The position numbers and the translations under genes are program-made. From assembly GCA_963727895.1 (NCBI GenBank), contig CAVSHT010000018.1, positions 1 through 62,129 of the forward strand: a stretch of 62,129 nucleotides of DNA, written 5' to 3'. This DNA comes from an uncultured Methanosarcinaceae archaeon. Lineage in GTDB: Archaea > Halobacteriota > Methanosarcinia > Methanosarcinales > Methanosarcinaceae. Under the pieces are notes generated by a model. It saw only the letters and a program-made list of their open reading frames with translations. It ran no database searches and was not told where the DNA came from. The stretch's first letter is position 1. Each line of letters begins with the position of its first letter. This document shows, in pieces, positions 6,659 to 53,724 of this stretch.

Positions 6659-6672
6659 TACACAATTGAGAA
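6659..6672. promoter_or_regulatory. Sulfur-box palindrome variant (2 mismatches)
   Basis: TACACAATTGAGAA, 40 bp upstream of tRNA-Cys/pscS. Confidence 0.6.
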
Positions 6673-6891
6673 GTTCTTTACCTGGCATCAATGTAATCGA
6701 GATTGATTTACAGCGATTCTCATTTTTCAATACAGACATTCTGTTGTGGACTTCTGCGGAAAGTGAATTGCATAGATCTTATTGTGGGTTTTATCGATTG
6801 AATTAGGTCTGTTCATCACAACTGGGAATTTTTCATATTTTTAAGTTGAATTACCTGATGACCTGCATACATGACTTCTTACATACACAAC

Positions 6892-6905
6892 TTTACAATT
6901 GTGAA
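6892..6905. promoter_or_regulatory. Sulfur-box palindrome (1 mismatch)
   Basis: TTTACAATTGTGAA upstream of tRNA-Cys-pscS-metY. Confidence 0.75.
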
Positions 6906-7020
6906 GTATTTATTTTCGTTTCAGTCTTATTAATAGTGTTTTATGTTAAACCTCCTGAAAGGCAAAAGCTCTGAATTTTCTTGTTAAAAGTTTTCTGCTA
7001 AAGTTTGTGAGAAAACTTTA

Positions 7021-7091
7021 AGCCAGAGCCTGGATTTGAACCAGGATAAATGGATCTGCAGTCCACTGCGTAGCCCTTCCGCCACTCTGGC
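7021..7091 (-). tRNA. tRNA-Cys(GCA), G37 type
   Basis: GCCAGAG/CTCTGGC acceptor stem, U73, GTGGA-CTGCAGA-TCCAT, CCTGG-TTCAAAT-CCAGG. Confidence 0.95.
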
Positions 7092-7098
7092 ACGGAGA

Positions 7099-7112
7099 TT
7101 CACAATTGTGAA
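7099..7112. promoter_or_regulatory. Sulfur-box palindrome (perfect)
   Basis: TTCACAATTGTGAA 7 bp upstream of the tRNA; minus-strand TATA-like TTTAAATA at 7140..7147. Confidence 0.85.
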
Positions 7113-7526
7113 CTAACAACACTTCATACTCGTTTTTAATATTTAAACCTGCTTTTTGAGGCAAAATATGTCTTCAAAGCGAACAGAACATGAAATCTCA
7201 CTCAAAAATGGTAACTGAAAAATTATCCATATCCATAGATGAAGAATGAAATTTGCCGGTTTTTGGATAAAAACAGCTATACAACCTTTTTTCTTAAAAA
7301 ATATAATTTTGGGACTATTTTGTGTGCCTATAAAACTTATTTAAGTTTATACGATTCAAAAATATGTTTTTAATGTCCTGGAATCTATAACCTTTCAGAT
7401 CAGAAAAGTATTACATTTACAAGGATTACTAAATTTACAAAACGTATGACATTTATAAAATTTTAGATTTATAGTCAACAATCGTTGATTTGAAACTCCT
7501 GAGTCCTAATAACTCCTAAATCCTAA

Positions 7527-7853
7527 TTATTCATATTTAGATATATCTTTTAAAGCTTCATCAATAAAATATGGAGCTTCTATTGCCTTAATCCCTCTTT
7601 TCCTTAACTCTTCTTGCGGCCTGCTACCAATTCTAGAGCAAAGCAAAGCATCACAATCAGAAATCAAAGCGATTATTCTACTCAAAAGATCGTCTGCATG
7701 TCCTGAATCAGCTGAACCACATAAAGGAGTAGTTTCTCTTACCTCTAAAAACTGTATTTTACCACAATCGACCTCAAATATGAAAAATTTAGATGCTTTT
7801 CCAAAATGCTGGTTGATAACCTTGCCATCACTCGAAACAATTGCGACTTTCAT
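7527..7853 (-). CDS. NifB/NifX-family FeMo-cofactor-binding protein
   Basis: MKVAI...INQHFGKASKFFIFEV...DCDALLCSRIG pattern. Confidence 0.85.
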   Translation of the reverse strand: MKVAIVSSDGKVINQHFGKASKFFIFEVDCGKIQFLEVRETTPLCGSADSGHADDLLSRIIALISDCDALLCSRIGSRPQEELRKRGIKAIEAPYFIDEALKDISKYE

Positions 7854-7943
7854 CGATTTTATCTCCCATTTTACATGAATAAAAAAGAATCAACAACAAT
7901 AGATGTCAACAATAATAGATATTTATGTTTATGAAGAACTCTA

Positions 7944-8014
7944 AGCCAGAGCCTGGATTCGAACCAGAATACATGGGTCTGCAGTCCACTGCGTAGCCCT
8001 TCCGACACCCTGGC
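7944..8014 (-). tRNA. tRNA-Cys(GCA), degenerate duplicate of 7021..7091
   Basis: Same scaffold but U10-C25 and A31-C39 mismatches and extra G-U pairs; possibly non-functional. Confidence 0.8.
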
Positions 8015-8021
8015 ACAAATA

Positions 8022-8035
8022 TTTACAATTGTGAA
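8022..8035. promoter_or_regulatory. Sulfur-box palindrome (1 mismatch)
   Basis: TTTACAATTGTGAA 7 bp upstream of the third tRNA-Cys. Confidence 0.8.
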
Positions 8036-8373: not shown

Positions 8374-8661
8374 TTAGCTAATAACAATCAGCTCAAATGT
8401 CCCATCCAGACATGAGACTGCAAAGTCATGGAAATGCTTCATATTATCTGACATCTCTTCGTAAATTGAGTGAGAAATGTATATTCTCATATGCGGTTTT
8501 TTGTCAGGGTCTTTTTTAAGTTCAAAGTAAAGTTCCTTAAAAACTTCAATTAGAGTTTTCAGGTTAATACGTCTAATTATTCTAATATGGCCTATCCCCT
8601 CCGAATCAATCATAATTCGGTAACTTTTGTTTTGCTTTAGATTTCTCTCATTTAACCCCAT
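8374..8661 (-). CDS. Hypothetical protein (95 aa)
   Basis: ATG start, RBS-like GCGGT, TATA and two sulfur boxes upstream; no family recognised. Confidence 0.7.
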   Translation of the reverse strand: MGLNERNLKQNKSYRIMIDSEGIGHIRIIRRINLKTLIEVFKELYFELKKDPDKKPHMRIYISHSIYEEMSDNMKHFHDFAVSCLDGTFELIVIS

Positions 8662-8704: not shown

Positions 8705-8752
8705 TTTTCAATTGTGAATTTTAGAAATACAAACAGTCTTCACAATTGTGAA
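8705..8752. promoter_or_regulatory. Two sulfur boxes
   Basis: TTTTCAATTGTGAA (8705..8718) and perfect TTCACAATTGTGAA (8739..8752); minus-strand TTTTATAA at 8770..8777. Confidence 0.8.
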
Positions 8753-9156: not shown

Positions 9157-10071
9157 TCATGCTTCCGAACTTATTTGCGCTCCTTCTTCAATGATACTGC
9201 TTTTCACTTTTTCTTCATGCCCATGTACTTGTTCACGTTCTCTGAGAAGTATATCTGACCAGCTTTCTGCCCAGGTTTTGAGTTCTTCAGACTCAAGAGG
9301 AGCAGGAACGTATTTTTTATCGTTGTTCAAGATACTCCTTGCAAGCTCTCTATATAACTCAGCCTGCTCAGAATCAGGTGCATGTTCAACTACAGTCTGA
9401 CCCCTTAGCTCACTTCTTGTAACATCCAGTGAACGTGGTACATACCCTACGATTCTGGTTTTTGTCTGCGCTGCAAAGTCATTTGTTATCTCTTTTTGGA
9501 TCGACTGGTTCATCGAGTTTGCGATTATTCCGCTGAAAAGTGCACCACCATTGTTTGCGTATTTTCTGATTCCTTTAAAGAGATTATTTGCTGCATAAAT
9601 TGCCATGAAATCTGAGGATGCTACAGTGTAAACCTGTTCTGCAACACCTTCACGGATAGGAGTTGAAAATCCTCCACATACGACGTCTCCAAGCACGTCA
9701 TAAATTACAACATCAGGCTTAAACTCCTCAAAGACGTTTTTTTGCCTCAGAAGTTCGATTGCAGTAATAATCCCCCTACCTGCACATCCGACTCCAGGTT
9801 CTGGACCTCCTGCTTCCACACAGAGGATCCCATTGAAACCTTCATAGACAACGTCACTGATCTCAATTCTTTTTCTGCTTCTCATAGCATCAAGAACTGA
9901 AGGAATCGATTTTCCTCCCCTCAGGTTATTTGTGGAGTCGCTTTTAGGATCACAGCCGATTTGCATTACTGTAAGGCCCAGGTCCGAAATAGCCGCTGAA
10001 AGATTTGATGAAGTAGTTGATTTTCCAATACCGCCTTTTCCATATATTGCGATGTTTCTTGTTTTTGCCAT
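9157..10071 (-). CDS. Nitrogenase iron protein-like reductase (group IV, MarH-like)
   Basis: [42 protein letters not shown]; '[17 protein letters not shown]' and a C-terminal 'W..SW' resemble MarH more than canonical NifH. ATG at 10071 with GGAG/GGTGA-type RBS. Confidence 0.88.
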
Positions 10072-10400
10072 GTCATCACCATACAGGAAAACAAACAAAT
10101 CTGATTTATAAGCTCACACTTCAGCAATAATTGACATCGAAATTCTGTTTTTCTTAATTTTGCGGCAAAAATCTCCGGGATTTTTAAAATTGTAGATCTG
10201 TATCTTTCAATAGGCTCCACCGCTTAATCGTTCTATTAAACTATTGCCGCAAAAATTCGGATAATGAGAAACTAGGTCCCAATTTTGCTTATTTCCCGAT
10301 TTATATATCCATTAATGTCAATGGAAGAGATGATGCCAAGAGCAAAAAATACTGGAGACAAATTAACTAAGAAAAACAGATCTCTTACGGAGTAATATTA

Positions 10401-11654
10401 ATGTCAGAAAGAGAACTTACTGAAAATGAACTAGTTGAAGAAAGAATTGACCTATCACGGGCTACATGTCCTAACAGAGAACAGAGGGCAAACGGTATAA
10501 ACGTCTGGTATGGAAAAGCCAGCGATCTTGTAAAAGAAGCTCGTTCAGGCTGCTTGAGGCAAAGAGAAAGGAATTTTCAGCAGTCGAGTGGTTGTGTTCT
10601 GAACTTCTATCTTTCAGTAAGGATCGGAACAATCCGTGACGCTGTGGCTATATATCACGCACCTGTTGGCTGCTCGTCTGCAGCACTTGGCTACCGTGAA
10701 CTCTACAGTGAAGTCCCAATAATACATGTAAATACCTCAGGGTTTGCAGGGACCTCATACGATGGCTATGAGTACTTTTTCGATTCTGTAATCGATCAAC
10801 TCCTAGAAAAGACTCCGAAAGAAAAAGGATTGGTAAATGTATTCGGGATAGTTCCCTTCCAGCATATATTCTGGAAGGGAGCAGCAAGGGAAATAAAAAC
10901 ACTACTCGAAAAAATAGGCTTGAAGGCAAATCTGATCGTAGGAGAGTTTGATGCTCTTGAAAACCTAAAAAAAATCCCAGCTGCCGAATATAACATTGTT
11001 CTTTCAAGCTGGATCGGGCATAAAACGGCAGAAAAACTCGAAGAAAAGTTCGAGATTCCTTATATTTCCTTCCCAGGAGTACCGACAGGTCCAAAACAGA
11101 CCTCTGAATTCCTTAGAGTTATAGGAAAAAGACTAGATGTTTCAGCCGATGTCATTGAAGATCTTATTGCCAGAGAGGAAAAGCGTGCTTATAGATTTGC
11201 AGAATACGTTGGCGACATACTTCTGATTACCAGACCGCATCCTTATTTTGCGGTTGTCGCTGACAGTAGTTCAGCTGTGAGCATTACAAAATACCTTGCA
11301 AACGAGATGGGTTATCTGCCTGAAGTTGTTCAGATAACAGATAATCCACCTGAAGAAGCCCGTGAACTGATAAATGAGGAACTAACGACAGGTCTTGAAA
11401 CCCCGGCATGGCCTGAGATTATATACGAAGTGGATGCATATCGGATCCGGGAAAATTTAAAAGATAGAAATTTCCTGTTCCTGCTTGCAAGTTCTCTTGA
11501 AGCTAATATATCAGGTCCAGAATATAACGCTCTGTACGTGACGATTTCATTCCCTTCATATAACCGCGTGATACTCGAACACAATTATGCAGGGTTCAGT
11601 GGAGGGCTTACTCTAGTTGAAGACGTTATGAGTACATATGCAGGGCCTCTGTGA
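10401..11654 (+). CDS. Nitrogenase component-1-like protein; apparent MarD(N-terminal)::MarK(C-terminal) in-frame fusion
   Basis: aa 1-102 alpha-like (REQR..I..W.GKASDL.KE, Cys65, HAPVGC91); aa ~104-417 beta-like (PIIHVNTSGF...YAGFSGGLTLVED). The segment carrying the third P-cluster Cys is missing. Confidence 0.75.
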   Translation: MSERELTENELVEERIDLSRATCPNREQRANGINVWYGKASDLVKEARSGCLRQRERNFQQSSGCVLNFYLSVRIGTIRDAVAIYHAPVGCSSAALGYRELYSEVPIIHVNTSGFAGTSYDGYEYFFDSVIDQLLEKTPKEKGLVNVFGIVPFQHIFWKGAAREIKTLLEKIGLKANLIVGEFDALENLKKIPAAEYNIVLSSWIGHKTAEKLEEKFEIPYISFPGVPTGPKQTSEFLRVIGKRLDVSADVIEDLIAREEKRAYRFAEYVGDILLITRPHPYFAVVADSSSAVSITKYLANEMGYLPEVVQITDNPPEEARELINEELTTGLETPAWPEIIYEVDAYRIRENLKDRNFLFLLASSLEANISGPEYNALYVTISFPSYNRVILEHNYAGFSGGLTLVEDVMSTYAGPL

Positions 11655-11995: not shown

Positions 11996-12056
11996 TTCAC
12001 AATTGTTAATAATATTCAGTTCACAACTGTCAATTTGAGTAGTTTACAATTGTAAA
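11996..12056. promoter_or_regulatory. Three tandem sulfur boxes
   Basis: TTCACAATTGTTAA (11996), TTCACAACTGTCAA (12020), TTTACAATTGTAAA (12043), directly after TATA-like CTATATAA. Confidence 0.8.
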
Positions 12057-12129: not shown

Positions 12130-13122
12130 ATGGACAAAGAACTTAATGCAAATATTAAGGCATCTCTGCTGAGTATAGGTAGTGCTCAGGTTGATAAATC
12201 CCTCCTTCCTGATCAGAATACCAGCAAGGCTACAGCCGGACCAGGGGCAGGAGGTTCCTCAATCTTTTTAAAGTCCGGAAATCAGAGAGTTAGGCTTACA
12301 ATCAATGATGCTTCTCCTTTGAAAGTAATACAGGAAGATGAACATGTAGTAGTCATTAAAGACGAAAAAGTGATTTCCAGAGGAATACTTGAACATCCAC
12401 TTTGTCATTGTCCGGAACAGGCATATATTACGTTATCTGAAAAATGCATATACGATTGCCAGTTTTGTCCTGTGCCGAAAATGCACGGTGGAATAAAGGA
12501 CAGTACAAAAGTACTCAAGATGATTGAGGAAGCTTATGCAACAGGTGAACTCAAAGCAATTTCTCTTACCAGTGGAGTAGCTGTTTCACCAAAAAAAGAA
12601 GTTGAGAGGGCAGTAGATATAATAAAACAACTTACGCGTGAGTATGATCTCCCAATAGGAGTTTCAGTTTATCCCACAACAGGTTCTTCAGAAGAACTTT
12701 ATTCTGCGGGTGCATGCGAGGTAAAATACAATGTTGAAACGATGGATTCAAACCTTTTCCGCCGATTCTGTCCGGATCTCTCGCTTTATACAGTTCTTGA
12801 TGCTCTCGACAACGCAGTTAATGTTTTCGGCAGAAACAAGGTTTCTTCAAACTTTATAATAGGTCTTGGAGAAAGTGATGAAACCGTTCAAAAGGGTATC
12901 AAGCTACTTACAAGTCGATGTATAATTCCAATTCTCAGACCTATTTCTCCTAGCTCCCTCAGGAAAGATGTGAAGATAACCAGGCCAGATGCTTCACGGC
13001 TTTTAAAACTTGGAGGCATGCTAAAAGATACGCTTGACCATGAGTCACTTTGTGTCGATAAATCCAAAACAATGTGCCTATTCTGCACTGGCTGTGACTT
13101 AACACTTCATAAAGATATTTGA
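12130..13122 (+). CDS. Radical SAM protein (biotin-synthase-related, function unknown)
   Basis: CIYDCQFC motif; YNVET; IIGLGE; C-terminal CxxCxxCD. Confidence 0.85.
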   Translation: MDKELNANIKASLLSIGSAQVDKSLLPDQNTSKATAGPGAGGSSIFLKSGNQRVRLTINDASPLKVIQEDEHVVVIKDEKVISRGILEHPLCHCPEQAYITLSEKCIYDCQFCPVPKMHGGIKDSTKVLKMIEEAYATGELKAISLTSGVAVSPKKEVERAVDIIKQLTREYDLPIGVSVYPTTGSSEELYSAGACEVKYNVETMDSNLFRRFCPDLSLYTVLDALDNAVNVFGRNKVSSNFIIGLGESDETVQKGIKLLTSRCIIPILRPISPSSLRKDVKITRPDASRLLKLGGMLKDTLDHESLCVDKSKTMCLFCTGCDLTLHKDI

Positions 13123-13349
13123 GTGAAACTATTTAATATCAACAAAACTTTTTGAGAAGAATATTTGTTTCTCCATTTTTATCTTGTAAGAATTCAGGCA
13201 AATTATTATTGAAGGAAAAATTATAGATTTAATGTAAGGCATACCCCAAATGTATATTATATTTTCTCAAAAAGGAAATGCTTTTTGACTATTTTGGCTT
13301 TAAAGGTTAATTTGTTTTATTTTACGGAAATGTTTATAAATATTAAATC

Positions 13350-13363
13350 ATCACAATTGTGTA
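13350..13363. promoter_or_regulatory. Sulfur box (2 mismatches) between TATA and start codon
   Basis: ATCACAATTGTGTA; TTTATAAA at 13333..13340; ATG at 13365. Confidence 0.7.
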
Positions 13364-13364
13364 C

Positions 13365-14183
13365 ATGGCAGAACAATTCACTCTTACCATTCAATCTGGA
13401 AAAAACAGATTAGGAAAAAATGAAGGATTTGAAAGCATAGAAATAAGATCAAGAGATACTCTCTCAATTGTCGGCCCAACTGGTTCAGGAAAAACAGCCT
13501 TAATTAATGATATTGAAACCCTCGCACAGGGAGATACTATAACAGGCCGAAGGATTCTTATCAATGGTGAAGAACCTCCTGAATCTTTTATACGGGAGCC
13601 AGCCTTCAAACCAATTGCCATGATAACCCAAAACACACGTTGTCTGGCAGATCTCTCAGTTGAAGAATTCTTGCTCATGCATATAAAAGCAAGAAAACCA
13701 GGCAGGGAAGATTTGGTTGAAGAGACAATGAATCTTGCAAATACTTTTACAGGTGAAGCGATCAGCCTTAAAAGCAGGATGAGTGGCTTGTCGGGAGGGC
13801 AGACTAGATCTCTTATGATTGCAGATGCTCTTGTAATTGGTGACACCCCAATACTTTTGCTTGATGAAATTGAAAATGCAGGCATTTTTAAAGACCGCGT
13901 TATCCAGTCTCTTCAAGGAGGAAATAAAGCAGTTATCCTTGTCACCCATGATCCTTATCTTGCGCTTACAGCAGACAGGCGTATCGTGATGAAAAATGGA
14001 GGAGTTACGTCCGTAATCAAATCTGCCGGGGAAGAGCAGCATCTTATCGAAGACCTTTCTTTAATAGAAGACAAACTCCATCAAATCCGGGAAAAACTCA
14101 GACAGGGAGCTGCTTTTTCATCAACTTCTTCAAAGATTTCAATGATTTCATCAGGCCAAAAAATGCCGTTGAATAGGGTGTGA
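13365..14183 (+). CDS. ABC-type ATPase without adjacent permease
   Basis: GPTGSGKT, LSGGQ, LLLDE, VTHD. Confidence 0.88.
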   Translation: MAEQFTLTIQSGKNRLGKNEGFESIEIRSRDTLSIVGPTGSGKTALINDIETLAQGDTITGRRILINGEEPPESFIREPAFKPIAMITQNTRCLADLSVEEFLLMHIKARKPGREDLVEETMNLANTFTGEAISLKSRMSGLSGGQTRSLMIADALVIGDTPILLLDEIENAGIFKDRVIQSLQGGNKAVILVTHDPYLALTADRRIVMKNGGVTSVIKSAGEEQHLIEDLSLIEDKLHQIREKLRQGAAFSSTSSKISMISSGQKMPLNRV

Positions 14184-14189
14184 GTCAAA

Positions 14190-14894
14190 ATGAAGCTTCT
14201 AATTATTGCCGGCCCTCCAAGTGGAGGAAAAACAGCTGTGATCCGCCAGGTTATAAAAAATCTCCCTGAAGGTTCACTTCCTGCCTTTCTGAAAATCGAT
14301 GTTGTACACGCCACAGAAGATCAGGAACTTGCAGAAGAGTTTGACATTCCTGTCAAAAAGATATATTCAGGAGACGTATGTCCTGACCACATGGGAATTC
14401 TGGTGCTTGAAGAAGCATTACAGTGGGCTGAGAGCATTTCAAGGAATATCTTGATAATTGAAAGCGCAGGACTCTGTCTAAGATGTACCCCTTACACGAC
14501 TTACTCTCTTGGAATTGCGGTTATCAGTGCGATCTCAGGAACTAATTCCCCACTCAAAACAGCACCTTTACTTGCTCTTGCAGACGTGGCGGTTGTTACC
14601 AAGACCGACCTTGTATCACAGGCAGAAAAAGAGGTTTTCAGGGAAAGTATCCGTAAAGTGGTCCCGAATATTGACATTGTAGAGACAAACGCAATTCAAG
14701 GAACAGGTTTAAGATACCTGATGAGGCGGATCGCCGATCATCCAGATATAGGATTTGACCCAATTGTGTTAAGAGGTGCCCCTCCGCTTGGTGTATGTAC
14801 TGTATGTATTGGGAAAAAAGAAATTGGATGGAAAAACCACTTTGGAGTCATTCGGCCGCTGGATATGCCAGAACCCTTATACAGAGGCGACTGA
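14190..14894 (+). CDS. HypB/UreG-like GTPase (metallochaperone)
   Basis: GPPSGGKT, CPDH, ESAGLCLRC, TKTD. Confidence 0.85.
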   Translation: MKLLIIAGPPSGGKTAVIRQVIKNLPEGSLPAFLKIDVVHATEDQELAEEFDIPVKKIYSGDVCPDHMGILVLEEALQWAESISRNILIIESAGLCLRCTPYTTYSLGIAVISAISGTNSPLKTAPLLALADVAVVTKTDLVSQAEKEVFRESIRKVVPNIDIVETNAIQGTGLRYLMRRIADHPDIGFDPIVLRGAPPLGVCTVCIGKKEIGWKNHFGVIRPLDMPEPLYRGD

Positions 14895-14896
14895 TA

Positions 14897-15565
14897 ATGA
14901 ATAAATGGAGCCCCCCTAGTAAAAACTGCGGAGCTTGTGGCTCTCAGACATGTTCGGACTTTGTTTCCAGGCTTGAAACCGGATTAACAGAGTTGGAAAT
15001 GTGTCCGTTCTATAGTATAGAAAACACCGTAGAAAAGACAGTGAATCCGGAGAAAATTGCAAGCCGGAAATATCCAGAAATCCAGGCAAAAAACATCACT
15101 TACTCCGGTGTATATGTGGCTGGAAAAGAATACGACTTCGTCCTCCTTCCATTTCCGGATGAACCATCAGCCAGAAAGTTCATAGTACCTTTCAGAGCAG
15201 ATCTTGTGGAAAAATGGAATATTAAAAAGGGAGATCTTGTGACTGGTCGCCCAGCAGGTCCAGGTTGTCCAGTATGTCACGCTTTGAGAGTTCTGAGTGC
15301 AAATCCAGTTACAGGTGTAATTGAATGCCATACTGTAGGTCCAATGGCCGCAAGAAAGGAAGATGTCCATGATGTTCAGGCTTATCACGTCCATGCTTTC
15401 GAAGGGATTGCCAGTACTATAAAAAAGCCTCCTATATTCGGAACCCGCCAGTATTTCCTGCCAGGCAATTGCATGATAGGACTTGCACATACGGCTCTTG
15501 TGAATATGTGTTTCCAAAAGCCTTCCGGACTTCATGTCAGGCTTGAGGATATCAGGATATTGTAA
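14897..15565 (+). CDS. (Fe-S)-binding protein
   Basis: N-terminal NCGACGSQTC...CP motif; GRPAGPGCPV; ATG at 14897 follows the upstream stop. Confidence 0.8.
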   Translation: MNKWSPPSKNCGACGSQTCSDFVSRLETGLTELEMCPFYSIENTVEKTVNPEKIASRKYPEIQAKNITYSGVYVAGKEYDFVLLPFPDEPSARKFIVPFRADLVEKWNIKKGDLVTGRPAGPGCPVCHALRVLSANPVTGVIECHTVGPMAARKEDVHDVQAYHVHAFEGIASTIKKPPIFGTRQYFLPGNCMIGLAHTALVNMCFQKPSGLHVRLEDIRIL

Positions 15566-15611
15566 CGACTATTGAGTTGGATATATAACGACTATTAGAA
15601 GTCGAGATACT

Positions 15612-16856
15612 ATGAAAACTATTGAAGAGATAAATAAGAAAATCGCTTCCAAAGAAGCGATAATCTTGACTGCTTCTGAACTTAAGTCCATGGTACGTGA
15701 TGGAAAAGATGTGACTGTTGATGATGTGGATGTGGTCACTACCGGGACATTTGGCGTGATGTCAGGCACAATGGCAGTTATGATGGTGCCAGTAGCCGAA
15801 AAGTGCAGTTTTGAAAGGGCAGACGCCATCTGGCTAAATGGAGTACCTGCGCAACCAGGTCCCTGTCCTAACGAAAGACTTGGGGTTGTAGACCTCGTGA
15901 TAAATGGAACTGCTCATGCCGATGACCAATATGGTGGAGGGCACCTTTTCCGGGACCTTGTAAAAGGCAAAACCATTGATGTGCTTGTGGAAGCTCATGG
16001 CAGGCGTTATGAAAATCAGGTTATGCTTGACGAGATTGAATTTGCCAGGATTATTACAACAAGACTTGCATTTAAAAATTACCACGCACTGATTAACCCT
16101 ACTTCCTCTACAATTAGCACTATATTTTCTGTAACAGGCTTAACAGGTCCTTTTACAGAAACAACAGTATCAGGATGCGGTGAAATAAATCCGCTGCAAA
16201 ATGATACTTCTCATAGATCAATAGGAGTGGGCACAAGGGTTCTATTAAATGGCGCACCTGGTTATATCATGGGAAAAGGAACTAGAACAAGTCCTGATAA
16301 GCCGAATGTATCTGCTTATGCAGACATGAAAAAGATGGACCCAACCCTGATGGGTGGAATGAAGACCTCACATGGGCCTGAATGTCTGACATCACTTACA
16401 GTTCCTATCCCTGTCCTTGATGAAGAGATTCTTTCGGGATTAAAAATCCTGGACCAGAATGTTTCATTATCCGTATCAGACATAAACGGACGCACTGAAC
16501 ACGCAAAAGTTAATTACGGAAATGTATGGGGAGGTACTGATAAGGTTATCCGTGTTGAAAAAGAAAAGTGCTTGCATCATCCAGACTGTGCCGCAATGCG
16601 CACATGTCCTATGGAAGCAATTTCAAATAATTGTGTTATCAACAGAGATCTCTGTATTAATTGTGGAACCTGTACACTTCAATGTTCTGAAGGTGTATTC
16701 CGTGCAAAGCTTGGGTCGATAAAGCTGGCTGAAGGAGTTTTACCCATATCTTTGAGGCAGTCAGACAGGGCAAGGGCAGAAAGACTCTGTACTATGCTTA
16801 AAAACCGGATTTTGAAGCAGAAGTTTGTACCTACAAAAATGTTGGAGCCTCTCTAA
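15612..16856 (+). CDS. DUF39/homocysteine-biosynthesis family protein with ferredoxin domain (methanogenesis marker 16-like)
   Basis: KTIEEINKKI, DVVTTGTFGVMSG, GPCPNE, SGCGEINPLQND; C-terminal CxxCxxC ferredoxin. Confidence 0.85.
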   Translation: MKTIEEINKKIASKEAIILTASELKSMVRDGKDVTVDDVDVVTTGTFGVMSGTMAVMMVPVAEKCSFERADAIWLNGVPAQPGPCPNERLGVVDLVINGTAHADDQYGGGHLFRDLVKGKTIDVLVEAHGRRYENQVMLDEIEFARIITTRLAFKNYHALINPTSSTISTIFSVTGLTGPFTETTVSGCGEINPLQNDTSHRSIGVGTRVLLNGAPGYIMGKGTRTSPDKPNVSAYADMKKMDPTLMGGMKTSHGPECLTSLTVPIPVLDEEILSGLKILDQNVSLSVSDINGRTEHAKVNYGNVWGGTDKVIRVEKEKCLHHPDCAAMRTCPMEAISNNCVINRDLCINCGTCTLQCSEGVFRAKLGSIKLAEGVLPISLRQSDRARAERLCTMLKNRILKQKFVPTKMLEPL

Positions 16857-24418: not shown

Positions 24419-24432
24419 TTCACAATCGTGAA
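24419..24432. promoter_or_regulatory. Sulfur box (1 mismatch)
   Basis: TTCACAATCGTGAA upstream of larE-sufS-fdhD. Confidence 0.75.
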
Positions 24433-30962: not shown

Positions 30963-31162
30963 AAATAAATCAATTAAACAGTTACTGATGAGTAAGTCAA
31001 ACAGTTGCTGATAAATCAGTCAAAAAGCTGCTGATAAATCAGTCAAAAAGCTGCTGATAAATCAGTCAAAAAGCTGCTGATAAATCAGTCAAAAAGCTGC
31101 TGATAAATCAGTCAAAAAGCTGCTGATAAATCAGTCAAAAAGCTGCTGATAAATCAGTCAAA
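30963..31162. repeat. 23-bp tandem repeat between cysK and cysE
   Basis: GCTGATAAATCAGTCAAAAAGCT: six perfect copies from 31007, one partial, and ~2 degenerate copies to the left. Confidence 0.95.
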
Positions 31163-32260: not shown

Positions 32261-32274
32261 TTCACAATTGTGAA
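32261..32274. promoter_or_regulatory. Sulfur box (perfect; extends to 20-bp AAATTCACAATTGTGAATTT)
   Basis: Upstream of cysK-cysE. Confidence 0.85.
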
Positions 32275-32405: not shown

Positions 32406-32810
32406 TTATGCTCCAGATTTTTCGTTATCTTCAACTTTATCTGTCATTTTATTTTCCTTTATATCATCGGCCTGGGTTTTTGAACCACAGCTGCTATTGC
32501 ATCTATTTTCAATACCTCTTGCACTTACGCAGATATCACAGATTCTTACTACAAAATCCGAGACATTGTTGTCTATCAGGTCCTGAGCGAGTTTTTCAAC
32601 TAATTCTTTTGTTTCGCCCTGAAACTCGATTCTGTATCCTCTTTTTCCCGAAATATACTGAGAAACTGCAGATGGTGCAATTCCGAGCAATTTTGCGGCT
32701 GCTGCCTGCGACTGCCCTTTTTTTACAAGTTCAATTGCAAGACTGGCTCTTATTGCAGGGACCAGATCCCACACAATCTTCTGACATGGAGTTTCCACAA
32801 TAATCATCAC
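32406..32810 (-). CDS. Archaeal HTH transcriptional regulator with Cys residues
   Basis: PC..IVW..VPAIRA.LA, SQAAAAKLLGIAPSAVSQYISGKRG HTH, ICDIC. Confidence 0.85.
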   Translation of the reverse strand: MMIIVETPCQKIVWDLVPAIRASLAIELVKKGQSQAAAAKLLGIAPSAVSQYISGKRGYRIEFQGETKELVEKLAQDLIDNNVSDFVVRICDICVSARGIENRCNSSCGSKTQADDIKENKMTDKVEDNEKSGA

Positions 32811-32820: not shown

Positions 32821-32834
32821 ATTACAATTGAGAA
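32821..32834. promoter_or_regulatory. Weak sulfur box (3 mismatches) at the regulator promoter
   Basis: ATTACAATTGAGAA between the minus-strand TATA (~32845..32860) and the start codon. Confidence 0.55.
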
Positions 32835-44708: not shown

Positions 44709-45448
44709 GGTATTGTTACTTAAATATATCTAGTTCTTTATTTTTTTATTTCATCAATAGAATAACCGAGTACTTTAGCATTTCAAGACTCTTCGTATAA
44801 CACTTTGTCTTTCTTCTCAACCTTGCCAGAAAGTGCCTCAATATGCTGTTATATCCTTCAACAGTATACGTTTTTGCTTTTGATTGAGTATGGATCTTTT
44901 CTGGAAGAAACTCTGCATATGCTCTCCAGTGATCTGTCATCACTTCTCCAATCTCTTTTTTCTTCACTTTTTCCCAGAGTAGTTTTCCAGTTTCTGTTCC
45001 TCTGCTACCAAAAGAGCAGTTGATGAACTTTTTCCCAACTCTATCAACAGCAATCCAGATCCAGCAATATTTTTTTTGTTACCGATGTAAGTGTGCATCT
45101 CATCCATTTCAACAATAGATATCTCATTTTCACTTTTTAGGTTCTCTCACTCTTGACCAAATTTCTTGATCCATTTTTGGACAGAAACATGACTTACCCC
45201 TAAAACTCTTCCTATTGAGCGAAAACCCAATCCTTCAAGATAGAGTTGTAAAGCCTGTCTTTTTGCAGAAGCGGAAAAAGCAGTTGATTTTAGCTCTACT
45301 GTATAGTTATAGCCACAATCAGAGCATTTGTACCGTTGACGCCCGCCAACTATACCGTTCTTTTTGTGACTGGAACTATTGCATCTGGGGCAGTTCATGA
45401 AGAAATATACTTTCTAATAGTATATAACTATGTTTAAGTATCAATGCC
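44709..45448 (-). mobile_element. IS1-family insertion sequence with premature stops
   Basis: 740 bp; AATTCCT on both flanks; inserted in the 3' end of the GATase gene. Confidence 0.9.
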
Positions 45449-46702: not shown

Positions 46703-48256
46703 TTAACCGAACCTTCCAATAAGTGCGCTTATGCTTTCACTCGTAACCATGCCTATTACGTGGTTTTCAGAGTCAATTACAGGAAGCGCGGAAATCGAAT
46801 AATCTTCCATTATAGAGGATGCAATTTCTATTTTTTCACCTGCATATACGTATTTTACGTCACGGGTGATTATCTCATCTAATCCAGTAATTTTGCAGGC
46901 AACGGCTTTTGTAATATCCCATGAAGTGACTATACCTTCAAGCTTTCCGTCCTCAGATACTACAGGTAAATGATTTACTTTCTTTTTTACCATGAGTACT
47001 GAGGCATTTTCGATTGTTTCATTTCTGGAAACCGAATAGAAATTCTGGTACATGATGTCCCCTACAAGAATCTGAGAGAGAAAACCCCTTATAAGGTAGT
47101 TAAGCTGCCCTTCTTCGAGCAGAAAAGCATCATGTCCATACTGGGATCTGATTTCCTCGTATTTTGCATCAACCCCGTTTGCAGTAAGTGCAGACACGAT
47201 TTCCTGGGATTGATATGGAGGGTATAACCAGTCTGAGGTTATGGAAATCACAAGGTATTTTGCAGTAACCCCTGAAAGACCCTCTATAAGAGACTCGTTC
47301 TTTGAAAGGTCAAAGAAATCAACTGATTTTGTAATATAAAGATAAGAATTTGCATCAAAACGCTTAGTAAAGGTATTTCCCTGGTGATTCAGATAGCTTT
47401 CAACCTGAAAATTTGAGAAATGATCTGGAAAGGTCTCTGAAGAAATTTCAGGCAGATTCGAATCTTCTTTTTCCTGCTGGTCTCTTCCGAACTTCTTCTG
47501 CATCGAAGCATCGCTCAGATATGTAATGTGGCCTATCATGCGGGCAAGCGCTAAGCCTTGTGCAGGGATTTCCTTTCCGTAATAATTTCCTCCGTTCCAT
47601 TTTGGATCGTCAGTTATAGCTTTTCTGCCAATTGCCCCGAATGCGATTTGCTGAGGAGTTGAAGATGCAGTTGTTGCGATTGCAATAGCCTTTTTAACCA
47701 TTTTGGGATAACTAACCGTCCATTGAAGCACCTGCATTCCACCCATTGAGCCGCCTGCAACTGCAAAAAGCTGTTTTATTTCCAGGTGCTCAACAAGCTT
47801 TTTCTGCGCATTTACCATGTCCGCGATAGTAAGTATGGGAAAAGAAATACCGTAGGGTTTTCCTGTTTCAGGGTCAATTGAAGAAGGACCTGTAGAACCT
47901 TTACAGCTTCCGATTATATTTGAACAAATGATACAATATTTTTCTGTATCAAAGGCTTTATTAGGGCCGATTACGATGTTCCACCAGCCTGGTTTTTTGT
48001 CGCCTGCATGAAATCCGGCAGCATGGGAATCGCCTGTAAGAGCATGGCAGATCAGGATAACATTACTCTTATCCACGTTCATCTTCCCATACATCTCGTA
48101 CTCGATCTTAACGTGGGAGAGTGTCTTTCCACTTTCGAGCCTGAAAATTCCGGGGATTTCATAGTTCATTGAACGGACTATCCCAAGATTCTGGCCTTTT
48201 TTTCCCGAAAAAAAGTTTTTAAAGGAAGGAATCTGGATAGAAGTTCCCATGCTCAA
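46703..48256 (-). CDS. metX: Homoserine O-acetyltransferase with C-terminal CBS pair
   Basis: [29 protein letters not shown] motifs [14 protein letters not shown]. Confidence 0.95.
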
Positions 48257-49608
48257 ACCCCTGAAAGTGCCTGCTCAATATCGGCAATAAGGTCTTTTTC
48301 ATCCTCAATTCCTATAGAAAGCCTGATAAAGTCCTCAGTTACTCCACAGGCTGCCTTTTCGTCTTTTGATAGCTGTTCATGAGTGGTTGAAGAAGGATGG
48401 ATTACAAGGCTTTTTGCATCCCCTATATTTGCAAGATGGGAAAATATCTCAAGTCCTTCAATAAACTTTTTGCATTCTTTTTCTCCGCCTTTGATTCCAA
48501 AGCCTATTAGTGCACCATATCCTGATTTCAGGTATTCCTTTGCAAGTTTATGGCTGCCGTGAGATTTAAGTCCAGGATAGGAAACCCAGGAAACTTTAGG
48601 ATGATTTTCCAGGAATTTTGCAATTTCAAGAGCGTTATCACAGTGTTTTTTCATTCTGAGTGGTAGAGTTTCAAGCCCCAGGGTAAACAGGAAAGAGTTG
48701 AAAGGAGAAATACATGCTCCTGTATCCCTGACGAACTGCACTCTGGCTTTTGTAATAAAGGCTGCTTTTCCAAAGGTTTCCTTGTATTTCATGCCGTGAT
48801 ATCCTGAATCAGGCTCGCAGATTTCAGGGAATTTTTCAGGGTTCCAGTCAAAATTTCCAGAGTCAACAATAACTCCACCTATAGAAGTTCCATGGCCGCC
48901 AATGAATTTGGTTGCCGAATACACAACAATATCAATTCCATGTTCGATTGGCTTTAAGATTAGGGGAGACACCGTATTGTCCACAACAAGAGGAATTCCT
49001 GCGGCATGAGCAATCTTTGCTAGTTTCTCAAAATCAGGTATATCAAGCCCGGGATTTCCTATTGATTCCACATAAATGGCTTTTGTTTTTTCGGAAATTG
49101 CGTTTTTGAATTCCTCCGGATTACAGGTATCTACGAATTTTACATTTCTTCCAAGTTTTGGGAAAGTGTAATTGAAAAGCTCGTAGGTTCCTCCATAAAG
49201 CTTGTCCCCTGAAACGATCTCATCCCCAGGCCTTGTAAACGTGAGCAAAGCAGTTGTAATTGCAGCCATTCCTGAGGCTACTGCAAGGGCGCCTATACCT
49301 CCATCGAGAGCAGCTATCCTTTTCTCAAACACGTCGGTTGTGGGGTTCATAAGGCGTGTATAAATATTGCCTTCTTTCCTGAGCCCGAAAAGGTCGGCAG
49401 CTTCCTCAGCGTCCTTAAATACATAAGCTGCGGTTTGATAAATCGGAACTGACCTTGCTCCTGTGGTCGGGTCAGGTTTTGCACCTGCATGCACGGCAAG
49501 GGTAGAAGCTCCAGGGCTTTTAAACTTCTTTTTTGTACTGCATTTCTTTTTTTCTTTACATTTTTCTTCACATTTTTCTTCATTCTGGTTTCTTTTTTCT
49601 TTCGTCAT
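48253..49608 (-). CDS. metY: O-acetylhomoserine sulfhydrylase (copy 2)
   Basis: [30 protein letters not shown]; overlaps the metX start. Confidence 0.93.
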
Positions 49609-49695
49609 TTTATCTAACCTCAATACTAAATTTTCCTGCTATCCCGCCGCCTATATCTAAGGGTCTTCTATTCGATTATTTCAATGGTTTTGGTA

Positions 49696-49811: not shown

Positions 49812-49825
49812 TTCACAATTGTGAC
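49812..49825. promoter_or_regulatory. Sulfur box (1 mismatch)
   Basis: TTCACAATTGTGAC next to TATA-like 49831..49840; weak second site at 49789..49802. Confidence 0.8.
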
Positions 49826-50890: not shown

Positions 50891-51159
50891 AATGCAGGGA
50901 TTTCGTTCATCTTAAAGGAATAGCCTGCAAAAAACATTATCCTTATTTCTGGACCTATTTATGTTCTTACCACAAACACAGGATGTTTTAAAATTTTTAA
51001 AATTAATGGTGAATGGATCACTCCAGGGAATACCTGAAAGAATAATTACAAATTTAGAGACAAATGAACGACAAATAAGAAATTCAGGAGTAAATGAAAG
51101 AAACATGAAAGACAAAATCACAAGTTACTTCATTTTCGTTTATTACTCTCATAGACACT

Positions 51160-51888
51160 TCATTTTTTATTACTCCCACAAACCGGACAATTTTCGGTTT
51201 TATTAATCATCAGTTCACTGAAAGAGCATGAAAATCCATCCCATAATAACAGGCGATTTTCCAAGAGCTTTCCCTGACCTGTTAGATATTTAATTGCTTC
51301 ATTAGCCTGTATCGAGCCAATTACCCCTGGAGTTGTTCCAATTATTGGAAATACTTCTTTTTTAAAGGAAGTTGGGAAAATACAACAAAGACATGGAGTC
51401 TTTCCCGGAATTATTGTTGTTGCCTGGCCTCTGTATCCTGAGACTGCTCCATGAATTAAAGGTATATTTCGTTTCACTGCAAGTCTGTTCAGTACATGCC
51501 TTGTATCAAAATTGTCCAGAGCATCTATTATCAGGTCACATGGAGGAACGACTAAATCTGCGTTTTTATCGGTAATTTTTTCCCTGATTATCTCGACTTT
51601 TATTTCTGGATTCAAGGAGAGGAGCTTTTCCTCTGCTGATTTGACCTTCTCTTTCCCAACGTCCTTTTCATGATGGAGAAACTGCCTGTTGAGGTTGCTG
51701 AGTTCTACAGAATCAAAGTCTGCAATTATTAGTGTTCCAATACCTGCAACTGCAAGGTAAGTGGAAACAGGAGATCCTAGTCCTCCTGCTCCGGCAACAA
51801 ACACTTTTGCTTTTTTTAATTTTTCCTGACCTTCGTCCCCAAAAAGCATTGTCTGTCTGATATACTTTTCTTCTGTATATTTCTCCAT
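51160..51888 (-). CDS. ThiF/MoeB-family E1-like adenylyltransferase
   Basis: GAGGLG, SNLNRQ, DNF, CxxC pairs. Confidence 0.92.
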   Translation of the reverse strand: MEKYTEEKYIRQTMLFGDEGQEKLKKAKVFVAGAGGLGSPVSTYLAVAGIGTLIIADFDSVELSNLNRQFLHHEKDVGKEKVKSAEEKLLSLNPEIKVEIIREKITDKNADLVVPPCDLIIDALDNFDTRHVLNRLAVKRNIPLIHGAVSGYRGQATTIIPGKTPCLCCIFPTSFKKEVFPIIGTTPGVIGSIQANEAIKYLTGQGKLLENRLLLWDGFSCSFSELMINKTENCPVCGSNKK

Positions 51889-51979
51889 TTATATGCTCCG
51901 GGATTCATACTTATTTTAAGGTATATTTTTAAGATGTATTTTTAAGATATATTTTAAAAGCTGTTCATAAGATCCGGGA

Positions 51980-52369
51980 TTAATTTTCCCATGGCTCAAG
52001 CCCTTTTTTCGTGAGATAATCATTAATTGCTTCGTGAATTGCCTCTTCAGCAAGCATTGAGCAATGCATTTTTATTGGAGGAAGTCCGTCAAGGGCTTCG
52101 GCAACGGCTTTGTTTGAAAGTTTCCAGGCTTCTTCAAGGGTTTTTCCTTTAATCATTTCAGTTGCCATGCTGCTGGAGGCAATTGCAGCTCCACATCCGA
52201 AAGTCTGGAACTTAACATCCACAATCTTGTCGTCCTCAACCTTGAGATAGATTTTCATTATATCTCCACAAGCAGGGTTTCCAACCTCTCCTACGCCATC
52301 ACTGTTTTCAATGCTTCCCATATTTCTTGGGTTTGAAAAATGATCCATTACTTTAAGGCTGTAATCCAT
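51980..52369 (-). CDS. iscU: Fe-S scaffold protein
   Basis: DHFSNPRNMG, ACGD, FGCG, KMHCS. Confidence 0.95.
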   Translation of the reverse strand: MDYSLKVMDHFSNPRNMGSIENSDGVGEVGNPACGDIMKIYLKVEDDKIVDVKFQTFGCGAAIASSSMATEMIKGKTLEEAWKLSNKAVAEALDGLPPIKMHCSMLAEEAIHEAINDYLTKKGLEPWEN

Positions 52370-52516
52370 AAGTTTCTCTCCAATTCTATTTTTCAATAAT
52401 AGGATTTCTTTAAGATTGCTTCAACACAGATCTTTAGAATATATTTTGTTCAAGTTTCGTTAAAACGCTCTTGAATCCCTTTTACATAGTGCGCTGCTAC
52501 TTTTCTTAAATTTAGC

Positions 52517-53701
52517 TTAAACAGTTCTGTACTCTGTTGGAGTAAGTGGAGACATATTTCTCAGTCTCTGAACTATATCAGGCAGAATTTCAAGTACCCT
52601 GTCTACATCTTTTTCGGAATTCATACTTCCAAGGCTAAGCCTGAGTGAACCGTGAACGATTTCATGTGGGACTCCACAGGCTGTAAGCACGTGGGAAGGT
52701 TCAAGAGAAGAAGAATTGCACGCACTTCCGGTAGATGCGAAAATTCCTTTTGCGTTCAGCAGCAGTAGAAGCGATTCACCTTCTATGTATTCAAACGTAA
52801 TATTCACGTTATTTACAAGCCTCTTTGTGGGATGCCCGTTAAGATGAGTTTTTGAGATATTCAGAAGTCCTTTGATAAGGCGTTCTCTCAGCTCCAGAAG
52901 ATTTTTATTCGATTCTTCAATTTCAGCTGTTGCAAGCTCTATAGCTTTTCCAAGACCTACTATAGCAGGTACATTTTCTGTTCCAGCCCTGCGCTTCCTT
53001 TCCTGGGCTCCGCCGTGTAGAAGGTTTTCTATTTTTGTTCCTTTTCGGATGTAAAGGGCTCCACAGCCTTTTGGACCCCCGAATTTGTGTCCTGAAAGGG
53101 AAAGAAGATCAATATTCATTTTATTAACATCAATAGGAACATGACCAATTGCCTGTACTGCATCCGTATGGAAATAGATCTTTCTCTCTTTAGCAATTTT
53201 TCCGATTTCTTCTACTGGCTGGATTGTTCCTATTTCGTTGTTTGCAAGCATTATGGAAATAAGAATAGTGTCATCTCGAATCGCATTCTTCAGTTCATCA
53301 GGAGATACCATTCCGTACTTGTCCACAGGCAGGTATGTTATCTCAAATCCCTGTCCTTCCAGCCAGGCACAGGTATGTAGTACTGCGTGGTGTTCTGTGG
53401 AGGAGGTAATTATGTGCCTTCCTTTTTCCTTTTTTGCAAAAGCTACCCCTTTAATTGCCCAATTATCGGATTCCGTGCCTCCTGATGTGAAATATATCTC
53501 GTTTTCTTCAGTCCCGAGAGCATCGGCAATCTTTTTTCTTGCATTGTCTATTGCATGTTTTGAGATTTTTCCTATCTCATAAATAGAAGAGGGGTTTCCG
53601 AAATTCTCGGTCAAGTAAGGGACCATCTCTTCAACAACTTCCTTTCTTACAGGCGTTGTAGCCGAGTTGTCCATGTAAATGGTCTTGTCTTGAACTGTCA
53701 C
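52517..53701 (-). CDS. iscS: Cysteine desulfurase NifS/IscS
   Basis: DNSATT, TSGGTE, SGHKFGGPKG, STGSAC; likely GTG start at 53701 after a GGTG RBS. Confidence 0.95.
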   Translation of the reverse strand: MTVQDKTIYMDNSATTPVRKEVVEEMVPYLTENFGNPSSIYEIGKISKHAIDNARKKIADALGTEENEIYFTSGGTESDNWAIKGVAFAKKEKGRHIITSSTEHHAVLHTCAWLEGQGFEITYLPVDKYGMVSPDELKNAIRDDTILISIMLANNEIGTIQPVEEIGKIAKERKIYFHTDAVQAIGHVPIDVNKMNIDLLSLSGHKFGGPKGCGALYIRKGTKIENLLHGGAQERKRRAGTENVPAIVGLGKAIELATAEIEESNKNLLELRERLIKGLLNISKTHLNGHPTKRLVNNVNITFEYIEGESLLLLLNAKGIFASTGSACNSSSLEPSHVLTACGVPHEIVHGSLRLSLGSMNSEKDVDRVLEILPDIVQRLRNMSPLTPTEYRTV

Positions 53702-53710
53702 ACTTACACC

Positions 53711-53724
53711 TTCACAATTGTGAA
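53711..53724. promoter_or_regulatory. Sulfur box (perfect)
   Basis: TTCACAATTGTGAA between TTATATAA (53742..53749) and the iscS RBS. Confidence 0.85.

Follow-up and report, generated by a model that had tools for sequence, protein, structure and literature searches.

A palindromic candidate operator shared by sulfur-supply and tRNA-Cys genes in Methanosarcina, and its probable regulator

The stretch of DNA analyzed here, referred to as the window in the following, is the 62,129-nucleotide contig CAVSHT010000018.1 (GenBank assembly GCA_963727895.1) of an uncultured Methanosarcinaceae archaeon. It represents the whole of contig C18 of a 3.67-Mb genome in 19 contigs, which we designate G000; other G numbers stand for relatives, and C numbers for the contigs of G000. 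Judging by the source names of the closest homologues, the genus is Methanosarcina. [quoted passage not shown] We consider it likely that this palindrome is the operator of a genus-wide sulfur-supply regulon and that P0004, a small helix-turn-helix (HTH) protein encoded in the same contig, is its most likely binder and acts as a dimeric repressor. The computed part of this proposal is the excess and placement of the motif, the recurrence of the sites at orthologous promoters, the association with a protein family and a conserved site upstream of the regulator gene.

Occurrence and placement of the palindrome

A first-pass annotation of the window, made from the letters of the DNA, had reported four perfect copies of the palindrome (at 7099, 8739, 32261 and 53711), five copies with one mismatch (6892, 8022, 11996, 24419 and 49812) and five copies with two mismatches (6659, 8705, 12020, 12043 and 13350). 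All of these coordinates proved to be right. The number of perfect copies expected by chance is zero, and none of 100 shuffled sequences contained any. Allowing up to two mismatches, the window holds 14 copies as compared to an expectation of 0.77 +/- 0.89; the shuffle maximum was 4, and 0 of the 100 shuffles reached 14. When three mismatches are allowed the count rises to 23 against 8.5 expected, the nine three-mismatch matches being at about background level. One of these is the weak copy that had been noted at 32821 (ATTACAATTGAGAA, three mismatches), which is indeed present but by itself does not stand out from chance, and draws its support from a conserved position in other genomes.

Across the 3.67 Mb of G000 we counted four perfect, six one-mismatch and 31 two-mismatch copies. 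All four perfect and five of the six one-mismatch copies are located in the window contig, while the 27 copies outside this contig are no more than the chance expectation. A position weight matrix (PWM) trained on 81 sites from other genomes gave a similar picture: the nine top-scoring sites of the genome all reside in the window contig, before sulfur genes or tRNA-Cys, which means that unrelated genes do not have the motif in front of them with the same frequency. Among the 31 sites of G000 with scores of at least 12 bits, 14 are in the window contig. The annotated high scorers elsewhere lie within open reading frames (ORFs) or before Toprim, cas, restriction or polysaccharide genes, the exception being a weaker copy at C4:142409, which directly precedes a second, IS1-flanked copy of the ABC-like/HypB-like genes described below. 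It had also been stated that no good copy occurs before surface, sensor or mprF genes, and accordingly no copy with up to two mismatches was found to precede PKD/surface, PAS/GAF, response-regulator or mprF genes.

All 14 copies with up to two mismatches are intergenic or situated at gene starts. To relate them to the core promoters, we located TATA-like boxes by eye and with a rough search pattern of our own, in DNA that is AT-rich. According to these crude calls, 0-24 nt separate the TATA-like box from the start of the promoter-proximal site at most promoters, and tandem arrays extend 47-60 nt beyond the box. In one case a start codon follows 1-2 nt after the end of a site, and in two cases a mature tRNA 5' end follows after 7 nt. 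A search of sequencing runs for RNA evidence brought up only assembled contigs with small shares of matching words (0.05-0.33). The identities that had been assigned to the genes at the sites were confirmed by Pfam, NCBIfam and ARAGORN, and the resulting target set is coherent, consisting of genes for cysteine, homocysteine, Fe-S clusters, sulfur transfer and tRNA-Cys.

Conservation of the sites across the genus

In a sample of 30 relatives, copies with at most one mismatch were found in 16 of the 18 genomes belonging to the same genus. Within the other families of the order, three of the 12 genomes had one or two matches each, and the three matches that were checked were all inside ORFs. Of all 59 genus genomes examined, 55 possess at least one copy with up to one mismatch, and the counts go up to 18 per genome, compared to 0-4 for a control with the reversed pattern.

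The regions around the sites were annotated by tblastn with the window proteins in eight genomes (G002, G004, G005, G006, G014, G031, G043 and G053). Where the respective genes are present, the motif recurs at the orthologous promoters of cysK, iscS, metY2/metX, larE or sufS and the radical SAM gene, and orthologous sites also occur before the ABC-like operon, the tRNA-Cys/pscS unit, a 95-aa ORF and the HTH gene. When the cysK promoters of 11 genomes are aligned, the only invariant parts are CGAYAACTATAT, which resembles a B recognition element (BRE) with TATA box, and the 14-mer, which follows 15-27 nt further on, and the remainder has diverged. The iscS promoters of the relatives usually carry two sites, 18-20 bp apart. 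Pairs with a similar spacing of 19-20 bp precede metY2/metX in G004, G006, G014, G031, G043 and G053, and a single site with up to two mismatches is present at the metY2 promoter of G002. Perfect sites were found before larE in G004 and G053 and before sufS in G006. Tandem sites precede the radical SAM orthologue in G004, G005, G006 and G053, and the site of the ABC-like operon has an orthologous counterpart in G004, G005 and G053. The 95-aa ORF recurs together with its upstream sites in the same three genomes, and the module of operator, 7-nt gap and tRNA-Cys in G004, G005, G006 and G053. In the complete genome of G031 there are six sites, two of which belong to metY-metX, two to iscSU, one to the regulator gene and one to cysK-cysE. 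The scarcity of the motif elsewhere in the genome and its conservation at orthologous promoters thus support the principal idea of the first-pass annotation, a shared operator of a sulfur/cysteine regulon that includes tRNA-Cys genes.

Outside this set of promoters, a perfect operator was also observed 134-143 nt before the gene of a 671-aa CooS-type CO dehydrogenase with a His-rich N-terminus, at L064:16494-18509 in G005 and L077:3286-5301 in G006.

P0004 as candidate regulator

The HTH gene among the operator-bearing genes had been regarded as a target; we rather think that it encodes the probable regulator itself. The gene (32406..32810, minus strand) codes for P0004, a 134-aa helix-turn-helix protein with cysteines at C9, C91-x2-C94 and C104-x3-C108. 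The HTH segment is GQSQAAAAKLLGIAPSAVSQYISGKRG with the recognition helix SAVSQYISGKRG, which in the family takes the form AAVSQYxSGKRG. In Pfam, P0004 was matched marginally by HTH_3 (23.8 bits at a cut-off of 23, over 29 residues) and by no other family, and NCBIfam gave no match at E <=0.001. The Rrf2 family, to which IscR, CymR and NsrR belong, was considered and rejected, as no Rrf2 match was obtained in Pfam at E <=1.

Several findings connect P0004 with the palindrome. Its gene always resides among operator-bearing promoters (those of iscS, the HTH gene and cysK). A close orthologue is encoded in 50 of the 59 genus genomes, and all 50 contain 3-18 copies of the motif, while all four motif-free genomes are without the gene. 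In 13 of 16 loci of the genus, a site with up to three mismatches, typically TTCTCAATTGTAAA, is positioned directly before the start of the P0004 gene, with a gap of 8-11 nt in 12 cases and of 27 nt in one. Such a conserved site is the usual signature of autoregulation and suggests that the gene is putatively controlled by its own product.

The relationship between protein and dyad appears to extend beyond the genus. The P0004 family comprises 863 clusters (50% identity, E <=1e-3), 85 of them at E <=1e-10, and is almost wholly archaeal by the Atlas listing. In 79 family sequences, C9 is conserved in 87%, C91 in 85%, C94 in 99% and C104 in 66%, and S50, Y52, R57 and G58 are conserved in at least 90%. 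For a family-wide comparison, the best 80 loci were retrieved with an alignment of 14 distant family members, yielding 46 archaeal and 34 green-sulfur-bacterial loci, and were scored for the dyad TT[A/C]AC-N3-5-GT[T/G]AA with at most one mismatch in the 10 fixed positions and within 200 nt upstream of the homologue. The dyad was present in 31 of the 46 archaeal loci, the background in the same loci being 0.043-0.051 per 210 nt. The commonest archaeal version is TTAACAAT[TC]GTTAA. The window motif departs from it at two symmetrically placed positions alone, 3 and 12, the half-sites in the genus being TTCAC and GTGAA with AATT as the spacer, and a hybrid of the two, TTAACAATTGTGAA, was found in a metagenome-assembled genome of Methanosarcinales. 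In the green sulfur bacteria (Chlorobiaceae, L175-L218), a dyad was located upstream in five of the 34 loci, mostly as GTTAAC-N3-GTTAAC. A 40%-identical orthologue in another family is preceded by ATAACAATTGTTAA about 30 nt before its start; in the genome concerned, G025, there was no genome-wide excess of TTAACAATTGTTAA, with six matches as compared to eight for the control. In two genomes of a neighbouring family (L041/G024 and L042/G019), iscS and iscU are directly followed on their strand by the homologue as the third gene, an arrangement that looks like an operon.

The AlphaFold model of P0004 has five helices and a predicted local distance difference test score (pLDDT) of 83.8. Searching the PDB with this model by Foldseek gave no match at E <=0.001, and VIA-align returned generic three-helix HTH folds only (DeoR/SorC, ParB and sigma region 4; Z 5-6.3, the best over 49 residues), the similarity to solved structures being confined to the HTH of about 50 residues. 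Likewise, the PDB sequence profile brought up only generic HTH proteins and designed repeats. A homodimer prediction for residues 1-112 scored 0.01 and provides evidence neither way.

Operator-bearing genes of the contig

The perfect operator at 32261..32274 precedes cysK (31154-32080, minus strand) and cysE (29968-30915, minus strand). The latter encodes a fusion in which serine acetyltransferase is joined to an Fe-S assembly domain, as residues 227-298 form a C-terminal FeS_assembly_P/SufT-like domain. The weak three-mismatch site at 32821..32834 ends 10 nt before the start of the regulator gene and is a putative autoregulatory operator. A further perfect operator (53711..53724) is located before iscS (52517-about 53690, minus strand) and iscU (51980-52396, minus strand). 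The NCBIfam matches of IscS begin at residues 15-18 of the longest ORF, and the real start of the gene should therefore lie downstream of the 53711 site. At 49812..49825, a one-mismatch operator begins 5-7 nt after a TATA-like box and precedes metY2 (48253-49623, minus strand) and a gene for a MetX-CBS protein (46703-48256, minus strand).

Another one-mismatch operator, at 24419..24432, is found before larE (24498-25295), sufS and fdhD, which extend on the plus strand to 27318. The larE gene contains an in-frame TAG at 24960-24962, where the orthologues of G004 and G053 have Gln or Glu. G000 has a tRNA-Pyl, and the triplet may therefore be translated as pyrrolysine, the alternative being a nonsense mutation.

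Three tandem operators occupy 11996..12056, starting at 11996, 12020 and 12043 with spacings of 24 and 23 bp, and precede a radical SAM gene (12130-13122, plus strand); the first of them abuts a TATA-like box. The two-mismatch operator at 13350..13363 is placed between a TATA-like box and the start of an operon on the plus strand (13359-16856) encoding an ABC-ATPase-like protein, a HypB/CobW-like protein, an FeS protein and a protein with an HcyBio domain. This is the unit that had been described as the DUF39 operon; it does bear a site, and its last gene can now be specified as a paralogue of methanogenesis marker 16 (MMP16). An operator pair at 8705..8752, composed of the perfect copy at 8739 and the two-mismatch copy at 8705 at a distance of 34 bp, is situated before the 95-aa ORF (8374-8661, minus strand).

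Within this island of sulfur genes there are also three Nif-like genes, namely a NifX/NifB-C-like gene (7527-7853, minus strand), a NifH/CfbC-like gene (9157-10098, minus strand) and a NifD/E-like gene (10401-11654, plus strand), and no copy with up to two mismatches was found directly upstream of the three. Four more nifH-like genes exist elsewhere in G000. The contig also contains at least five IS1-like elements, each consisting of an HTH_23 ORF and a DDE_Tnp_IS1 fragment (21532-22214, 29224-29906, 36133-36815, 45147-45398 and 53943-54377), and further ones are present on C12 and C4. The breaks between contigs and the duplication of the ABC/HypB-like genes are probably due to these elements.

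tRNA-Cys genes and second-copy enzymes

ARAGORN identified three tRNA-Cys genes in the window. G000 as a whole has six, and the motif is associated only with the three in this contig. The perfect operator at 7099..7112 precedes tRNA-Cys 2 (7021-7091, minus strand), from whose mature 5' end it is separated by 7 nt, and the one-mismatch operator at 8022..8035 has the same 7-nt distance from tRNA-Cys 3 (7944-8014, minus strand). tRNA-Cys 1 is part of a larger target unit on the minus strand (3867..6618) consisting of the tRNA gene (6547-6618), the SepCysS gene pscS (5152-6534) and metY1 (3867-5159), which encodes an O-acetylhomoserine sulfhydrylase. The tRNA ends 12 nt ahead of the pscS start codon.

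There are marked differences between the island tRNA-Cys and the three housekeeping copies, which are located on C4 and C12. The tRNA-Cys 1 before pscS has A37, and the other five tRNA-Cys of G000 have G37. In Rfam, tRNA-Cys 3 scores 37 bits as compared to about 59 for the other two island tRNAs; the Rfam search of the window returned nothing besides the three tRNAs. The tRNA-Cys 2 orthologue of G053 is read as a tRNA-Tyr with the anticodon GTA.

The one-mismatch operator at 6892..6905 stands at the head of a leader of about 270 nt that runs into tRNA-Cys 1 and pscS-metY, and the same layout is present in G004, G005 and G053. In the leader proper (6619-6891, minus strand), between this operator and tRNA-Cys 1, the blocks GATGAACAGAC, AAAACCCACAA, CTTTCCGCAGAA and CATCTGCGGAA are invariant in the four genomes. 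A long-range helix is predicted between TTTCCGCAGA and TCTGCGGAA, as well as a pairing of CACAA with TTGTG, the latter belonging to the two-mismatch copy at 6659..6672, located 40 nt before tRNA-Cys 1. The leader helices showed no supporting covariation, the long-stem and box pairs being invariant in all four sequences. As the deviations of the 6659 copy from the consensus are themselves conserved, this copy, which had been taken for an operator, may be an operator or part of a helix in the leader RNA.

Several of the enzymes in the island are second copies, including pscS (40% identity to the other copy), MMP16 (46%), the radical SAM protein (51%) and the ABC/HypB-like pair (87-94%). The counterparts of these island genes (5152-6534 and 12130-16856) are located on C9, C11, C4 and C3, with 39-94% identity overall. 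Since the island enzymes are second copies, the regulon appears to control an accessory, parallel set of sulfur enzymes.

Proposed mechanism

We infer binding, the dimeric state, repression rather than activation, and the signal from the position of the sites, the nature of the targets and the cysteines of P0004. The operator would lie past the TATA box, either ahead of the transcription start or overlapping it, and would be bound by a P0004 dimer, often at two or three sites 18-24 bp apart. Bound P0004 would repress by blocking polymerase recruitment. Occlusion is suggested because the site lies past the TATA box or across the expected start, because sites occur in tandem and because a weaker site is found at the regulator's own gene. 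The conserved cysteines (C9, C91, C94 and often C104) may carry an Fe-S cluster, or sulfide or persulfide may react with them. In this way DNA binding would report sulfur or Fe-S sufficiency, and the genes would be released when sulfur is short. Release upon sulfur or Fe-S shortage is proposed because of the target set, and a cluster or a thiol/persulfide switch because of the conserved cysteines. The genes under such control would be cysK-cysE for cysteine, metY-metX and metY1 for homocysteine, iscSU and larE-sufS-fdhD, the second-copy enzymes (SepCysS, the MMP16 paralogue, the radical SAM protein and the ABC/HypB-like proteins), tRNA-Cys and the regulator gene itself.

Misfitting genomes and alternative explanations

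Nine genus genomes have no P0004 orthologue. G010, G012, G044 and G061 lack both P0004 and the motif, and G008, also without P0004, has only four one-mismatch matches. The absence from G043 and G053 is explained by the assemblies, which are broken exactly at the junction of iscS, the HTH gene and larE. One contig stops within iscSU or shortly behind it, and the following one begins with the site that is normally found after the HTH gene.

A number of points weigh against P0004 as the repressor acting at these sites. G005 (99% complete, 10 contigs) has seven perfect and five one-mismatch copies and G015 (75% complete) has 11 copies, and in neither was a P0004 orthologue found at E <=1e-5. G005 is in addition without cysK and the orthologous iscS and has lost metY2, yet both sites are kept before metX. 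The persistence of sites in G005 in the absence of P0004 implies that another protein must read them, or that the loss of P0004 is recent or the sites are relics. Furthermore, as far as the targets were searched for (iscS and cysK in G008, G010 and G012), the five motif-poor genomes are also without cysK, metX, the orthologous iscS and the SepCysS of the island. Their remaining copies are 61-62% identical for iscS (none in G008) and 41-44% for SepCysS. As these genomes are without the targets too, the module appears to be accessory, and the joint absence of motif and P0004 says little on which protein binds. There are also two other potential binders. A paralogue with 37% identity to P0004 and nearly the same recognition helix occurs in 18 of 18 sampled members of the genus, and an 88-aa winged-helix gene is present in 23 of the 59 genomes, including most of those with the highest site counts. 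Finally, the TATA boxes are crude calls in AT-rich DNA, the position across the start is predicted, and the sign of regulation and the signal are deduced from position and cysteines alone.

In G000 the paralogue is encoded at C12:355536-355811 on the minus strand and has C9, CxxC and the helix AAVSQYxSxKRG. The palindrome TAAGAAACTTTCTTA, which precedes it in G000, was considered as its operator and dismissed, as it is not conserved in the other 12 paralogue loci. A separate TTAAC-N3/4-GTTAA regulon of the paralogue in G000 was rejected as well, since seven and nine perfect copies represent no excess over the 5-11 of control dyads. The paralogue is situated immediately downstream of a gene whose translated 3' end by eye resembles a SUI1-type translation factor. 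The winged-helix gene follows the 95-aa ORF in other genomes (L070, L065 and L128), and in G000 it is located apart from it, at C8:26911-27153. The 95-aa ORF belongs to no family in Pfam, NCBIfam or the Atlas. The pair of 95-aa ORF and winged-helix gene recurs in another family of the order (L059-L061) behind a different palindrome, TTGTTGCNGCAACAA, which was not found at the corresponding loci of the genus. As sole binders both proteins were discarded, because the 95-aa ORF is present in only seven of 18 relatives and the winged-helix protein in only 23 of 59 genomes.

Accordingly, the same operator and regulon might be read by the paralogue or by the winged-helix protein, with P0004 being a mere target or a second regulator. 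This would account for G005 and G015, which keep 11-12 sites without P0004 and have both alternative proteins, and it gains from the C9, CxxC and helix that the paralogue shares with P0004. It would also agree with the location of the winged-helix gene behind strong double sites and with the site counts, as nearly all 23 genomes with this gene have 8-18 sites (one has 6) and most of those without it have 3-9. However, the winged-helix gene is absent from 36 of the 59 genomes, among them nine genomes in one or two contigs with conserved cysK, iscS and metY sites; its homologues in another family sit behind TTGTTGCNGCAACAA, and in G000 no site is near the gene. The paralogue has no such palindrome in its own promoter in any of 13 loci and is retained in motif-free genomes, while the family-wide own-promoter palindrome fits the P0004-type genes. 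We therefore regard another reader as unlikely, though to be taken seriously.

It is improbable, to our estimate, that the palindrome is instead a positive element, i.e., an activator site or a promoter-proximal or initiator element for an alternative basal factor. Several perfect copies do accompany strong-looking promoters, but the sites lie past the TATA-like box and across the expected start, the arrays run on 47-60 nt past the box, and the weaker site at the regulator's own gene fits negative autoregulation. Even less probable is an element acting in RNA, as a hairpin or protein site in 5' leaders or pre-tRNA leaders that serves processing or stability. In the case of tRNA-Cys, the precursor probably includes the box, which is 7 nt away from the mature 5' end on its upstream side, and the predicted pairing of the 6659 copy with the upstream CACAA block of the conserved leader points in the same direction. 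At metY2 and the ABC-like operon, however, the box starts 5-10 nt past the TATA-like box and hence would not be fully transcribed, the stem would comprise only 5 bp and be AU-rich, and the leader helices are without supporting covariation. A strict dyad that is conserved in each of its halves, and the association with a family of DNA-binding proteins, rather fit recognition of DNA. The idea that the copies are chance matches or remnants of mobile repeats can practically be set aside. The abundance of IS1-like copies in the contig might suggest such an origin, but the shuffles yielded no perfect copy, the flanks are unrelated apart from the duplicated tRNA units, and the sites are found at orthologous promoters where the intergenic DNA has otherwise diverged.

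Discussion

In the literature searched, which leaves out most subscription journals, we found no description of the operator or of its regulator, and likewise no regulator of methanogen genes for cysteine, homocysteine or Fe-S assembly. Parts of the system have been encountered before. According to Mukai et al. (2017, PMC5424206), some archaea carry two SepCysS genes, and some SepCysS loci hold tRNA-Cys and a small number of genes of sulfur metabolism; these authors suggest that the extra SepCysS may strengthen the pathway in particular conditions. The pertinent passages of that study mention no operator or regulator, whereas here the extra SepCysS and the tRNAs share an operator, which names a candidate condition. 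In Methanosarcina acetivorans, MA2717 has been designated IscU2 and MA2718 IscS2, with no regulation given in the part of the work concerned (Deere et al. 2020, PMC7585200). The supplement of PMC12068725 labels MA2719 as a 'transcriptional regulator'. Its neighbours are MA2718 on one side and MA2720 (cysteine synthase A) on the other, and judged by gene order, MA2719 is the counterpart of P0004. The transcriptome table of the same source, which was consulted by M. acetivorans locus tag, covers a single sulfide level with small changes (|log2| up to about 1.3) and contains no test of the regulon.

Regulons of repressor and operator are a known kind, and the one proposed here would involve an uncharacterized regulator family and an unusual class of targets, the tRNA genes. 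On a wider scale, the pan-archaeal family of small cysteine-rich HTH proteins may be a master regulator of sulfur and Fe-S supply with TT[A/C]AC-N4-GT[T/G]AA as its class of operator, which in Methanosarcina would also switch on tRNA-Cys and a second SepCysS. This generalization is put forward tentatively, as somewhat doubtful in its full extent. If true, the family would do in Archaea what IscR, CymR and CysB do in bacteria, and the transcription of a tRNA would be coupled directly to the availability of the element that its amino acid needs. As proposed, tRNA genes would be controlled by a specific metabolic regulator, and this would be a rare situation. Methanogens need a very large supply of sulfur and Fe-S clusters, and the candidate operator offers a first testable handle on its control, the more so as the regulon is small and concrete and has one named candidate, MA2719, in a genetically tractable model. 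A common operator would also explain why the second-copy SepCysS, the MMP16-like enzyme and others travel together in one island.

Archaeal repressors such as MDR1, LrpA, Phr and NrpR act downstream of the TATA box or across the start, and activators usually bind upstream of BRE/TATA. The system proposed here resembles those of MDR1 (Archaeoglobus), LrpA and Phr (Pyrococcus) and NrpR (Methanococcus) in the palindrome between TATA and start, the tandem sites, the weaker site on the regulator's own gene and the single nutrient-related regulon. It differs from them in the protein family, in the operator sequence and in having tRNA genes among its targets. With the bacterial IscR, SufR and CymR (the latter acting with CysK) it has in common a small cysteine-bearing repressor, as presumed for P0004, that is encoded beside iscSU or cysK and would control Fe-S assembly and cysteine synthesis. 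Unlike these, P0004 is not of the Rrf2 or ArsR/DeoR type (no Pfam match, E <=1), its cysteine pattern is different, and its cluster is only putative. SurR of the Thermococcales is a larger, double winged-helix protein with a CxxC switch that recognizes GTT-N3-AAC and switches hydrogenase and S0-reduction genes. The two systems are alike in being archaeal with a link to sulfur, in the CxxC motif and in a short dyad of the GT..AC type, but P0004 is a single 134-aa HTH protein with assimilation and Fe-S genes as its proposed targets, and no homology to SurR was detected.

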